A stretch of DNA of 64,000 bases from Sulfurimonas sp. (GCA_030247515.1 JAOTSA010000001.1:1255-65254); one strand, 5' to 3'; positions 13,307 through 28,000 are shown, counted from the stretch's first letter. Notes: generated by a model not told the origin, from the sequence alone. Numbers and translations are program-made.

Positions 13307-15264
13307 AGTTAATTACTCTTGCTCTTTTTACGGTCGTTTTATACGGGTCTGACACATGTTACACTGTTCAACTCCTAAGCACAAACAGTTCTAAAAATAA
13401 TACGAAGATGTTGGAGGGGCGTGAGTATCCAGATGAGTGCAAGCTCATGGAGATAGGAAGCACCTTAACTGTTCGTTGTGGATGTTTTGAAAAAATAGAT
13501 ACTGCCCAAAAAGAGTTGCCAAAATTTAAGAACACATATAAAGAAGCCGTTGTTGCGTCAACATACAAATATAGGTTTGATGACGTTGCAAAAAACGATA
13601 TTATAAAAAACGACGTTGCAAAAAATGATACTATAAAGAGTGATACTGCAAAAAGCAGCGCAGCAGAAGTTCATAAAAAAACTGAAATCATCACAGTACT
13701 TCCCTCTCATGAAGAGGTGCTTAAGGATGAAGATGTCCCTGAGTCAAAAAAAGAGGTAACATCTCCAGAAGCTCTCCCTGCAACAGAACCTTCTCAAGAA
13801 GACAATGAAAAAGATAAGAAAGAGAAAAAGAAGAAGAAAGACAAAGTAAAAAATATAGCAGTAGAAGAAAAAATAAAAAAAGAGGAAGAAGAGAGAAAGA
13901 TAAAAGAAGAGGAAGAGAAGAAAAAAGAAGAAGATAATGAAAAAAACAAGAAAGATAATAAAAAAGATAAGAAAAAAAAGGACAAAGTAAAAAATAAAGT
14001 AGAAGATAAGACAAAGAAAGAAGAAGAAGAGAGAAAGAGAAAAGAAGAGGAAGAGAAGAAAAGAAAAGAAGAGGAAGAGAAAAAGAAAAAAGAGGAAGAG
14101 GATAGAAGAAAGAGAGAGGGATTGTCGTATGTTAAGAAAAGAGATGCTGATTTTTCTTATGAGAGGTATTTGAAGCCCTTAAAAAGTACGAGCGGGAAAA
14201 AACCATTTGACTACCGATATGAGTTTGGAGGGCAGTTTGCCTATGATGTAGCATATATAAATGAAGCAGACGCATCCTATCATGAGACTGACTGGAGAAG
14301 GGTTCGGTTGTATCACAAAGGGAGTTTTTTCAACAAAAAGCTCTTTTATGAGGTTGAGTACAGTCCTATCGGAGATAGTAAATATAAAGATATGTTTGCA
14401 GGGTATCAAAACTCACTTAAACCGCTCTCTACAGACTATAGGGTAAAACTTGGAAACCTTAAAGTGCCTTTTTCACTTGAGGGATATACTAGCTCAAAAT
14501 ATATAACATTTATGGAGAGATCTTTAAATGATGCTTTCGAAGAGAGCCGAAAGCTGGGTGTTGAGCTTCTCTCTTCAACACATCTTGGAGGTAGCTACAT
14601 CAATGTTTTTGGCTCTGCATTTTCAAACTCGATTGATGAGCGGATAAATGATGAAATTTCTACTCCAGGGTATTCTGGCAGGCTGACATATGCGCATGAA
14701 TTTAGCAAAAACCATCTTTTTTCTTTTGGCGGCGGTTTTATGAGTCAAGATATAGGTGATGAAAGTATTAGATTCAAGCAAGGTTCAGAATCTGAGTGGA
14801 TAGCCCAAAAATATGTTTCAGTAAAAGTAAAAAATGTCGATACTGTCCAGAAGAGAAATGTAGAGGCTCTGTATATAAATAACAGTTTTTCTTTGCAGGG
14901 GGAGTACGCAACTGCTCTGGTAGATTCGGCTGATGGAAATTATGCTTTTGATGCTTACTATATGCAAGGGAGCTATTTTATTATCGGAAATGGAAGAGAG
15001 TATAAGTTTGGTACTTCAACGCTAAGTAAGATTAAGCCAAACAGGGGCGGTGCGCTTGAGCTTGCATTTAGATACTCGAAACTAAATCTAAATGACAAGG
15101 ATGAGCATGGCGGCTCTCAAATTGACTATAATTATGGGTTGAATTGGTATATTAGTGATGAGTTGAGAGTTATGCTAAACTATGTTGTTGCGCAGCCTAA
15201 AGAGACTGATGATTATGATGGGTTGTTGCAAATAATACAGGGAAGAGTTTTATTTGCTTTTTAA
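13303..15264 (+). CDS. OprO/OprP-type phosphate-selective porin with N-terminal Cys-containing SPOR-like domain and long Lys/Glu linker
   Basis: Signal peptide; SPOR-like residues about 17-92; K/E tract; barrel motifs 'WRRVRL', 'KVPFSLEGYTSSKYITFMERS', 'GALELAFRYS', 'GLNWY'; terminal Phe. Confidence 0.8.
   Translation: MKLITLALFTVVLYGSDTCYTVQLLSTNSSKNNTKMLEGREYPDECKLMEIGSTLTVRCGCFEKIDTAQKELPKFKNTYKEAVVASTYKYRFDDVAKNDIIKNDVAKNDTIKSDTAKSSAAEVHKKTEIITVLPSHEEVLKDEDVPESKKEVTSPEALPATEPSQEDNEKDKKEKKKKKDKVKNIAVEEKIKKEEEERKIKEEEEKKKEEDNEKNKKDNKKDKKKKDKVKNKVEDKTKKEEEERKRKEEEEKKRKEEEEKKKKEEEDRRKREGLSYVKKRDADFSYERYLKPLKSTSGKKPFDYRYEFGGQFAYDVAYINEADASYHETDWRRVRLYHKGSFFNKKLFYEVEYSPIGDSKYKDMFAGYQNSLKPLSTDYRVKLGNLKVPFSLEGYTSSKYITFMERSLNDAFEESRKLGVELLSSTHLGGSYINVFGSAFSNSIDERINDEISTPGYSGRLTYAHEFSKNHLFSFGGGFMSQDIGDESIRFKQGSESEWIAQKYVSVKVKNVDTVQKRNVEALYINNSFSLQGEYATALVDSADGNYAFDAYYMQGSYFIIGNGREYKFGTSTLSKIKPNRGGALELAFRYSKLNLNDKDEHGGSQIDYNYGLNWYISDELRVMLNYVVAQPKETDDYDGLLQIIQGRVLFAF
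13582..13656 (+). repeat. Five imperfect 15-bp tandem repeats (DVAKN-DIIKN-DVAKN-DTIKS-DTAKS) in the porin linker
   Basis: gacgttgcaaaaaac gatattataaaaaac gacgttgcaaaaaat gatactataaagagt gatactgcaaaaagc read directly. Confidence 0.8.
13801..14118 (+). repeat. Purine-rich low-complexity tract with internal duplication, encoding an E4/K4-type charged helix
   Basis: Almost all A/G on the + strand. 'gacaaagtaaaaaata' at about 13840 and 13981; repeated 'aaagaagaggaagagaa'. Confidence 0.85.
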
Positions 15265-15294
15265 GAGTTTAAATTAATAAGAAGAAGGGTTCAT

Positions 15295-25088: not shown

Positions 25089-28000
25089 AAATAGTACTTT
25101 TTATATTTTTTGCATTTATATCCGTTTTTGCGCAGTCCGAGGAGACTTGTTACACCGTGCAGTTGACCAGTAGTGACAATACAGAAAAAAATCTACACAC
25201 ACTGCAAAACAACAACTATCCGCAGTCATGTGAAGTAATGCAAATCGGCGAATCTATCACTGTTAGATGTGGCTGTTTTGAGAAAAAATCTTTAGCACAA
25301 GAGAGACAAACAGAGCTTAAAAAAGAGTATCCAAATGCTGCTATTGTCAACACATATAGATACAGATTTGATGCAAAAGTGCAAAAAGCCGCAGAGTTGT
25401 CAACTGTAGAAAAAATCATCCTCTCTCCAAAAATACCAAAAAAAGATGTGTCAAAAAGTGACGCTGACAAGGCAAAAGAGTCTAAAGAGACTTGCTACAC
25501 TGTTCAACTGGTAAGCGTAAATAACACAAGTAAAAATTTGGATGTATTGAGTAAGAGTACCTTCCCACAAAACTGCAAAGCAATGGAGATAGGCAATACG
25601 CTTACAGTAAGATGTGGCTGTTTTGAAAAAATATCTTTGGCAAACGATGAGCAAAAAGTGCTTCAAAAAGAGTACCGTAACGCCGCTGTAGTCAGTACGT
25701 ACAAATACAGATTTGATGAAGAAACTATTTTTGAGTCAAGCAGAGAAAAAAAAGAGGATAAAGAGGAAAAAGAGGGGAAGAGCAAAGTAACTATTGCTAG
25801 AGAAGAGAGTAGCCAAAAAGAGGAAAAAAAAGGGAGCGAGGAGAAAAAAGACAAAGCGGTATCAAGGCTTCATGAAGAGAAGATAGAAGCTGTTGAGCAG
25901 GAAAAAAACTTTGTACCAGCGGACTTGGCGTATGATGATGAAGAGCTAAGACTTATGATGCAGGTTTTTTTAGGAAAAGGCGATTTGGAATCTGCTTATG
26001 AAGTGGCGTCTAAAGGTTATAGCAAAACACCTCATTCATACTATTGGAACCAAAAAATGGCGGAGATTTGCCAATGGACAAATCGTTCGGCAAGGTCCAT
26101 GAAACACCTTCGATTTATGTATGAAGTCAAATACGACCCAAAAATAGAGCAGGAACTGATAGAGTACGGTTCAGAATCTTACCAGTATGAAGAGATAGAA
26201 CCTCTTGTTGTGAACAGAGCATTAAGAGAACCTACGGAAAAAAATATTGACCTTATGATTCTTGTTTACAAAGAGATAGGCGAGCCTGAAAAGGTGGTAA
26301 AAGTACTAGAGACACAATACTACAAAGATACAACAAACACCATTTTGCTAACAAAAGCTTTGGAGCTAAGTCTTGAGATAGGCAACATGGAGTTGGTACA
26401 AAAATTTGTCAACATTCTTGAGCAAAAGAAGCCATATACAAAAAAAGATGCCTCTTTAATCGCACGTTATTATTACATTACAAATGAGATTGCAACTGCT
26501 TATAAAAGTTTGTTAGAGACGGATGAGTCAAAAATCGTTGATGAGCAAGAAAATATAAAATATTATCAGCTAAAAAGTGACTTAGGCTGGTATCTGCAAG
26601 AAAATGTGAATGCGGCGGCGGCTTCTAGGTACTTGATGGAGATAGAAAAAGCACGTTTTGTGGATTATGAACGCATAAGTTTCGTTTATCAAAAAAAAGA
26701 CCCAGAATTTGCGGCAGGTGCGGTAAAAAAAGCGTATCGTGAACATAAAATCTCCTATCTCTTTTACAGTTTTGCAAATGAGGCGATAAACCTTAAGCAG
26801 TATGATGTGCTAAATGCGTTGATAGAAGAGTTTGATGCAGAGGAGACCCCTTTTGAGGAGGAATCTCTCTACTGGATTATCAAATCAAAAGTTTATGCGT
26901 ACTATGAAAAGAGGGATTTGGAAAAGGAGGCTTTGCTTAAAGCTCTTGAGTTAGACCCAGAAAATTATCAGATTAAACTTGCCCTCTTATGGTTTTTTAT
27001 GGATATCAGCGATGCTCAAAATGTCAGAATGATTTTAACTGATATGTCTGAAAACAAGGAGCTTGGCGCAAGTTTTTATCTCCCAATAGCATCAGCCTAT
27101 TTTTATCTTCATGATATAAACAGAGCCTCATACTATACACAGCAGCTTCTTGCGATGAATGATTCTGTTATAGAGCTTACGCAGTTTAAGTTTTTGCAAG
27201 CGTATATCTACCAGATACAAAACAACGAACCAGCTTTCATGAGTTATATGAATAAAATCGTTTCAGATTTAAAAGAGGAAGCGGAGTTAAGTCCTGGACT
27301 AGAGAAACAAGATGAGCATCTCTCCAACTATCTTCGTGCAGGTATGCATGTGTGGCATCCTGACAAGTTTGAGAACAAACTTGCAAAAGCCAAAGAGTAT
27401 CTGAGTGAAGAAAACTACAATGAGATAGCCTATTCTTGGGCAGTAAACAACAGTGCTTATGAAAAAAGTTTCAAAATCTACCATAAGATGAACAAAAAAG
27501 AGTTGTGGGTAAGGTTTAGCAACGATACCATTGCGCAAGACCATACTGGGATTGAAAATCTGATGGATTGGTACTTGGAGAGCCTCTCCATGGGTGATGT
27601 GTCGCAAGCATCTTATAAAGATGGACAAAAAGCACTCTCTCAAACGATTACATTTGAGGGCTTACTGACAAACGATGATAACCAGAATGCTTACATACAA
27701 CACAGAGATTTGAGCAAAGAGCGTTCAGATTTGTTTGAAACAAAACTTGCCCACTCCAACAGAGACCCATTGGTGCAAAAATCTTCACAGTTGCAAAATC
27801 GTGCTTATTTGCAAAAAGGGTACTATCTTTATACTGGATTTGACTATTTTTCTAACTCTACTTTGAATGAGAGGTTGCTCCAAAATGTTCCACAGCATAC
27901 ACTTGAAGCTGATATGGGGCTAAGAAAGATATACGACAGAGGGTATCTGGAGGGGCATGTGGAGTTCCATGACTCTATGGAGAGCTATTTGGGCTTCTCT

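Follow-up and report, generated by a model that had tools for sequence, protein, structure and literature searches.

We analyzed a 64,000-nucleotide stretch of a Sulfurimonas sp. genome (GCA_030247515.1 JAOTSA010000001.1:1255-65254; hereafter the window, with positions counted from its first nucleotide), which contains a pel operon in which the genes for PelC, D, E, F, G, and A adjoin that for PelB. Two outer membrane (OM) proteins of this locus, a porin and PelB, carry at their N termini one and two copies, respectively, of a small module with four cysteines. Based on sequence comparison and structure prediction, we conclude that this module is probably (at a probability of about 0.6) a cysteine-stabilized member of the SPOR superfamily that acts as an interchangeable N-terminal periplasmic cap, and putative peptidoglycan anchor, for OM proteins in Sulfurimonas and related Campylobacterota. 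Peptidoglycan binding and a function as tether and spacer are proposed.

The three copies had been located in a first-pass annotation of the window, and translation, alignment, and a hidden Markov model (HMM) bore them out:

13351..13578, + strand: 4-Cys SPOR-like module, single copy on the porin O/P protein (HMM E value, 1e-43; target of an AlphaFold2 [AF2] model with a pLDDT of 93.5)
25142..25369, + strand: 4-Cys SPOR-like module, PelB copy 1 (HMM; sub-threshold match to Pfam SPOR, E value of 0.01 and 16.6 bits, cut-off 21)
25487..25714, + strand: 4-Cys SPOR-like module, PelB copy 2 (HMM)
25379..25483, + strand: 35-amino-acid (aa) spacer between the two PelB modules (translation)

Each module interval translates co-linearly into 76 aa, and the copies align without gaps at pairwise aa identities of 44%, 52%, and 60%, with 33 invariant columns that include all four Cys. 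An HMM built from the three matched each copy at an E value of 1e-43 to 5e-43 and matched nothing else among the six-frame open reading frames (ORFs) of ≥50 aa in the window, which excludes chance similarity. The modules begin 2 to 4 residues past a Sec-type signal peptide; PelB copy 2 instead follows the 35-aa spacer. The consensus motif first given for the copies fits them except in its spacings, as L10 and C32 are separated by 21 rather than 20 residues and the next block reads C-x2-M rather than C-x-M. The DNA similarity reported alongside it is merely what conserved amino acids impose, with nucleotide identities of 53 to 65% and third-codon-position identities of 34 to 48%.

A SPOR-like identity, as initially suggested for the module, is supported by predicted fold, motif, structural matches, and a transitive sequence link. 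The AF2 model of the porin copy, based on a 95-sequence alignment (pLDDT of 93.5, pTM of 0.82), has strands (E) and helices (H) in the order E4-14, H17-24, E32-37, E40-48, H51-62, and E69-74, the beta-alpha-beta-beta-alpha-beta topology of the SPOR/RNP-like fold. Among PDB entries, Foldseek ranked the SPOR domain of CwlC first (1x60; probability of 0.99, TM scores of 0.56/0.58, E value of 0.028) and that of DedD third (6ztg; probability of 0.94, E value of 0.091), and these were the sole high-probability, top-TM matches. A structural comparison with SPOR domains, called for in the first-pass annotation, thus favors the assignment by probability and TM score but not by E value. An earlier AF2 model from five sequences (pLDDT of 75), for which Foldseek returned generic ferredoxin-like matches (CwlC at rank 25, DamX at rank 32), was superseded by the deep-alignment model.

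At the sequence level, SPOR was the sole Pfam family matched repeatedly by a set of 141 diverse modules (22 at E ≤ 0.1, the best at 1.2e-4), with any other family matched by at most 3. The module HMM, run exhaustively with HMMER against 1.84 billion representatives of 50%-identity protein clusters, matched, at an E value of 1e-8, a protein (P0144) with two Cys-less bona fide SPOR domains (Pfam, 2.3e-17); in the alignment, its TTYTIQTGSF falls on the module's TCYTVQLvS and its GKLYTVRLGTF on GesLTVRCGCF. When the module profile was aligned by hhalign with FtsN, DamX, DedD, RlpA, and P0144 together, the match spanned 72 columns at 94% probability (E value of 9e-8), and the Q and S of the module fell on those of the SPOR domains. 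Across 200 module instances, the strand 1 motif Q-x-x-S is well kept (Q in 73% and E in 17% at column 9; S in 81% at column 12), as is R-x-G-x-[FY] in strand 3, and Q-x-x-S and R-x-G-x-F are among the most conserved non-Cys positions. Module residues Q9 and S12 are the counterparts of two residue pairs needed for septal localization, DamX Q351/S354 and FtsN Q251/S254; the RlpA equivalent is Q270/A273 (PMC6895207).

Several observations weigh against this assignment and the tether built on it. None of the Foldseek E values is significant (the lowest is 0.028), and the remaining matches are to generic ferredoxin-like folds. The window copies score below the Pfam SPOR (PF05036) gathering threshold (16.6 bits versus 21 for PelB copy 1), with no Pfam SPOR match at all for the porin copy and PelB copy 2, and no SPOR domain emerged from searches of PDB sequences with the 3- and 141-sequence profiles. 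Against the four Escherichia coli SPOR domains alone, hhalign gave a probability of 3.9%, albeit with a score above those of five column-shuffled controls. Moreover, canonical SPOR domains recognize denuded glycans, which are enriched at septa, and this is more in keeping with a role in localization than with a cell-wide tether. Given 94% probability with P0144 but 3.9% without it, the sequence link to SPOR is transitive and rests on one bridging protein. We infer that the module is a divergent SPOR-superfamily domain outside the curated Pfam threshold, with homology that is good but indirect.

The module shares with SPOR domains (PF05036; FtsN, DamX, DedD, RlpA, and CwlC) a length of ~75 aa, an extracytoplasmic location, the beta-alpha-beta-beta-alpha-beta order, and the strand 1 [YF]-x-[VI]-Q-x-x-S and strand 3 R-x-G-x-F motifs, and RlpA, like the module carriers, is an OM protein with a SPOR domain. 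Unlike them, the module scores below the Pfam threshold, has four near-invariant Cys at new positions, stands at the N terminus rather than the C terminus, and occurs in 1 to 3 tandem copies. Its fusion partners are integral OM beta-barrels and TolC-like proteins, not divisome proteins or lytic enzymes, and in the present data it is confined to Sulfurimonas-type Campylobacterota. We regard the SPOR subfamily and its domain architecture as new.

The four Cys (C5, C32, C45, and C47) were first thought to mark a distinct SPOR subfamily, which their 95 to 99% conservation in the 200 instances upholds. All four are present in 189 of these; C32 and C45 are jointly absent, with C5 and C47 kept, in 7 instances from at least two lineages, and no instance has lost a single Cys of a pair. 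One Cys precedes strand 1, one opens strand 2, and two flank the strand 3 Gly. In the predicted hairpin, C32 faces C45, and C5, where strand 1 begins, is beside C47, where strand 3 ends. This geometry and the joint loss of C32 and C45 favor two disulfides, C5-C47 and C32-C45, over a four-ligand metal site. The SPOR domain of FtsN also has a functionally relevant disulfide, C252-C312, at positions other than those of the module (PMC6895207). We discarded the idea that the first Cys is that of a lipoprotein, as there is no lipobox ([LVI][ASTVI][GAS]C) and an A-x-A-type cleavage site lies 2 to 5 residues upstream. Positions -3/-2 before C5 are mostly charged (K, E, or D), which precludes a lipobox, and position -1 holds T (48%) or S (30%); the porin reads S-D-T-C.

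The exhaustive search recovered 177 module-bearing representatives at E ≤ 1e-3, including 123 at E ≤ 1e-10; word-indexed protein searches with the short module profile yielded merely 3 and 2 matches and were uninformative. The module nearly always occupies residues ~18 to 100, directly past the signal peptide, in 1 to 3 copies. To define carrier classes, we clustered the downstream regions and scanned representatives. All carriers are OM proteins: besides PelB and porin O/P, they comprise at least four clusters of TolC-like outer membrane efflux proteins (OEP), Alginate_exp (AlgE-like), Slam-like (tetratricopeptide repeats [TPRs] plus SlipAM), DUF1302, and OMP_b-brl proteins, as well as several unannotated proteins with an aromatic last residue, as in OM barrels. 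In total, at least 10 carrier classes besides PelB and porin occur in non-pel contexts. A genome scan by two narrow peptide patterns, the counts from which are lower bounds, found at least 22 loci, of which 20 are from Sulfurimonas/Sulfurimonadaceae, 1 is from a Campylobacterales metagenome-assembled genome (MAG), and 1 is from Arcobacter. By these loci, the module-bearing proteins belong mostly to Sulfurimonas. Different carriers are found together in a single MAG, and PelB relatives are labeled Sulfurospirillum and Sulfurovum as well.

Existing annotations miss the module, and a module profile would therefore improve them. None of 120 listed PelB relatives has a precomputed SPOR match, and those that are named bear the label “tetratricopeptide repeat protein”; nor does any source name in the sampled carrier clusters reflect the module. 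Our literature search on SPOR in connection with PelB, Sulfurimonas, or OM-barrel tethers found nothing relevant.

Other roles for the module are conceivable. The four Cys might make up a site for metal (Zn, Fe, or Cu) or for redox sensing on a periplasmic domain of the ferredoxin-like or heavy-metal-associated (HMA)-like type, in which case the module would be a sensor or binder of metal or sulfide and not of peptidoglycan. The near-invariance of the Cys, with a C-x-C among them, would suit such a site, as would the ferredoxin-like fold (HMA, ACT, and PII-like folds are among the weak Foldseek matches) and the habits of Sulfurimonas-type hosts, which are sulfur oxidizers living in redox gradients. 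We nevertheless consider it very unlikely: joint loss of C32 and C45 from seven instances that keep C5 and C47 is expected of two disulfides and not of a tetrahedral site, the Cys lie in strands and not in the beta1-alpha1 loop used by HMA domains, a periplasmic location favors disulfides, and the SPOR motifs are retained. It is unlikely, too, that the RNP-like fold serves protein-protein interaction or assembly, be it OM protein biogenesis, carrier oligomerization, or docking to a periplasmic partner. The functionally important Q-x-x-S and R-x-G-x-F of SPOR would hardly be expected to stand out in conservation in that case, long charged spacers fit a distance-setting tether, and module-free PelB orthologues exist, so that the module is not required for barrel assembly. 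Such a role would agree with the missed SPOR family threshold and with an OM destination as the sole trait common to the carriers, which would fit targeting or assembly; DamX W416, key for septal localization (PMC6895207), also has no located equivalent in the module.

The first-pass annotation had favored a pel-specific adaptation, in which the module was shuffled within the operon and serves as a shared anchor that brings the porin and the Pel exit pore to the same site, such as the septum or a pole. It is true that the module caps both OM barrels of the locus, that the arrangement [module]-porin ... [module]-PelB is kept in other Sulfurimonas pel loci (L002, L003, L005, and L008), and that SPOR domains are known septal targeting devices (PMC6895207). 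However, the window copies resemble one another (44 to 60% identity) no more than they resemble copies from other genomes or carriers (52 to 65%), which speaks against shuffling within the operon, as do PelB homologues with 0, 1, or 2 modules. Recent in-operon duplication or gene conversion was ruled out by the 34 to 48% third-codon identity and by nearest-neighbor analysis; by these sequence comparisons, the window copies are old. The HMM search showed the module to be widespread on unrelated proteins without pel association, from TolC-like OEP to AlgE-like, Slam-like, DUF1302, OMP_b-brl, and unannotated barrels. This carrier spectrum largely refutes a pel-specific role, which we regard as quite unlikely, and makes a general cell wall anchor likelier than a Pel-specific device. 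Septal or polar targeting by the module is possible by analogy, because SPOR domains recognize denuded glycans.

As a general SPOR-derived anchor, the module would work as follows. After Sec export and signal peptide cleavage, the ~78-aa domain would fold in the periplasm, where disulfides C5-C47 and C32-C45 would lock the fold. The SPOR beta-sheet face would bind peptidoglycan glycan strands, and a K/E-rich, probably alpha-helical spacer of variable length would join the module to the membrane-embedded barrel. With the spacer between wall-binding module and barrel, the OM protein would be tied to the wall at a set distance. In the pel locus, the module would thus fix to the wall the neighboring porin and the OM half of PelB, which is split here (see below) and which would have gained a cleavable signal peptide and modules, exchanging an inner-membrane anchorage for a wall anchor.

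Such an arrangement would resemble the OmpM/SlpA-type tethers of diderm Firmicutes and Deinococcus, in which an N-terminal S-layer homology (SLH) domain is followed by a coiled-coil stalk and a beta-barrel (PMC10628300, PMC9388160). Both combine a signal peptide, a wall-binding domain, an extended helical spacer, and an OM barrel, maybe a channel (PMC10628300, PMC9388160). The resemblance is functional only, with no homology, as the SLH domain is unrelated and binds pyruvylated secondary cell wall polymer or polyamine-modified peptidoglycan; OmpM is also one abundant family, whereas the module is spread over many carrier families. The C-terminal domain of OmpA and Pal likewise provide non-covalent peptidoglycan-binding domains that tether the OM to the wall. 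Their OmpA_C-like fold is unrelated, however, binds the stem-peptide diaminopimelate, is C-terminal or lipoprotein linked, and does not cap many barrel families promiscuously.

More tentatively, and with the odds somewhat against it, Sulfurimonas-type Campylobacterota may have their own OM tethering system, in which a SPOR-derived domain locked by disulfides and a helical spacer of the ER/K type would be joined to a dozen unrelated OM families. A large part of the OM proteome would then be fixed to the wall protein by protein, and spacer length would set local periplasmic width. If so, the tethered proteins would be exopolysaccharide exporters, TolC-like ducts, porins, and lipid-export barrels. 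Dependence of the fold on two disulfides could also make attachment sensitive to the redox state of the periplasm at oxic-sulfidic interfaces. OM-wall fastening, which matters for envelope mechanics, vesicle formation, and evolution, varies by lineage and includes Lpp, Pal/OmpA, SLH-OmpM, and covalently linked barrels. The SPOR-derived cap would be another solution to OM fastening and would extend SPOR beyond its known role in septal targeting.

The module-bearing 1,185-aa protein of the window (ORF 25085-28642) is PelB, with a TPR scaffold (TPR_15, 2.6e-28) and a PelB-type C-terminal barrel (B-barrel_PelB_C, PF24604, 3.7e-35) encoded within a pel locus. It matches PDB entry 9h80_M (1.2e-11), and its residues 284 to 691 are co-linear with residues 286 to 690 of Pseudomonas aeruginosa PelB. 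The features of PelB, and of the ORF directly upstream that probably encodes its missing N-terminal part, are as follows:

24027..25088, + strand: putative PelB N-terminal piece, a separate 353-aa ORF with a transmembrane helix and TPRs (TPR_19 and TPR_14 matches)
25085..25132, + strand: Sec-type signal peptide of the PelB OM half (MKIVLFIFFAFISVFA; read from the translation)
25724..25933, + strand: K/E-rich PelB linker of ~70 aa (residues 214-285), 43% K+E (translation)
25934..27721, + strand: PelB TPR scaffold (TPR_15; co-linear with P. aeruginosa PelB)
27722..28642, + strand: PelB C-terminal beta-barrel (PF24604, 3.7e-35)

P. aeruginosa PelB starts with a transmembrane helix that is not cleaved, continues with TPRs, and may span both membranes (PMC12141448). 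The first-pass annotation described it as having no SPOR domain, and its N terminus does differ from that of the window protein. The window PelB polypeptide has no such uncleaved helix and opens with a cleavable-type signal peptide followed by modules. The 353-aa ORF with the transmembrane helix and TPRs, which overlaps it by ATGA, probably corresponds to the PelB N terminus, given the co-linearity with P. aeruginosa PelB, and an equivalent ORF lies immediately upstream of module-PelB in loci L001, L002, L006, L008, and L022. Thus, the PelB described here and P. aeruginosa PelB (PA3063; PDB 9h80) share a TPR scaffold, a 16-stranded C-terminal barrel, and a pelA-G-type locus but differ in that here the transmembrane part has its own ORF and the OM part has a cleavable signal peptide, two modules, and charged linkers. 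For Pel biology, this indicates that PelB need not span both membranes as one polypeptide; in this clade, the OM half is separate and probably wall anchored.

The module occurs once in 72 and twice in 35 of 114 close PelB homologues; the remaining 7 lack it, and in 5 of these the signal peptide runs directly into TPRs. Five full-length module-free homologues with a cleavable signal peptide were noted (P0243, P0244, P0245, P0247, and P0253; e.g., from Sulfurimonas marina). The existence of a signal-peptide PelB without the module indicates that the PelB split and module gain are separable events.

The porin carrier (ORF 13303-15264, 653 aa) matches Pfam Porin_O_P (PF07396) at 1.7e-37 over residues 309 to 635 and, in the PDB, OprP (2o4v, 1e-10) and OprO (4rjw, 7e-8). 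By these matches, it is a member of the porin O/P family, an assignment that does not extend to anion/phosphate selectivity. Looking up the exact sequence returned no matching record. Its features besides the module are as follows:

13303..13347, + strand: Sec-type signal peptide (MKLITLALFTVVLYG; read from the translation)
13588..14202, + strand: K/E-rich linker of ~205 aa (residues 96-300), 50% K+E (translation)
14203..15264, + strand: porin O/P family beta-barrel (PF07396; OprP/OprO matches)

K/E-rich linkers had been noted in the first-pass annotation, and both proteins have them (50% K+E in the porin, 43% in PelB). In the porin, linker residues 166 to 283 are of the ER/K type; with zero Pro, one Gly, and opposite charges in 63 of 114 i/i+4 pairs, this stretch is probably an extended single alpha-helix spacer. 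The linker also has a weak TolA-like match. Its purine-rich, K/E-coding DNA contains a 138-bp tandem duplication at 13808-14093 (2 copies, 82% match), so that linker length is likely strain variable.

Two further observations concern module carriers in other genomes. The commonest one, a barrel ending in GYYF, received no name from Pfam, NCBIfam, or PDB profiles. Its gene cluster (L015, 9204-15612; L027, 5249-11732) encodes a LolA-like/DUF1329 protein on one side of the barrel and an MMPL transporter and a bifunctional acyltransferase (Acyltransf_2 plus GNAT) on the other, and the conserved content suggests an OM lipid-export system. Elsewhere, the module is encoded by its own small ORF (164 aa and 125 aa) directly before a barrel ORF (L003, 9915-11842; L027, 6001-7661, Sulfurimonas sp. 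NW9, CP093236.1). The break between module and barrel falls in or just past the linker and consists of a frame change in L003 and of a stop and an 8-bp gap in L027; these separate ORFs could be genuine two-gene forms, pseudogenes, or the result of misassembly of low-complexity DNA.

In the window, the locus runs from a CotH-like gene (10132) through genes for a PycTM/DUF3616 protein (11768), the [module]-porin, a PelC-like lipoprotein, PelD, PelE, PelF, and PelG to a PelA-like gene, the 353-aa transmembrane and TPR protein (24027-25088), the [module x2]-PelB, and a second PelA (28663). The same gene order occurs in other Sulfurimonas genomes (L002, L003, L005, and L008), and PelC through module-PelB are present in the Arcobacter MAG (L022). 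Directly upstream of the porin (10132-13306) are the CotH kinase-like protein and a protein that combines PycTM (Pycsar effector-like transmembrane) with DUF3616; in L003 and L005, too, both genes show synteny with the pel locus.

Only one pelA is present in P. aeruginosa. Here, two PelA paralogues (21480-24043 and 28663-31410) flank the PelB genes. L002 and L008 also have both copies, while in L006 and L022 the upstream copy alone was detected, though the fetched sequence reaches beyond PelB. The first PelA-like gene of the window is interrupted near 23460, where the frame stops at ...SPRRYKP and resumes in another frame as INVYYHHYSGSK..., a continuation that matches the intact second PelA. 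The break is a single-base frameshift at CCATAAATG, reflecting either a pseudogene or a sequencing error; the counterpart of this gene is intact in L002 and L008.

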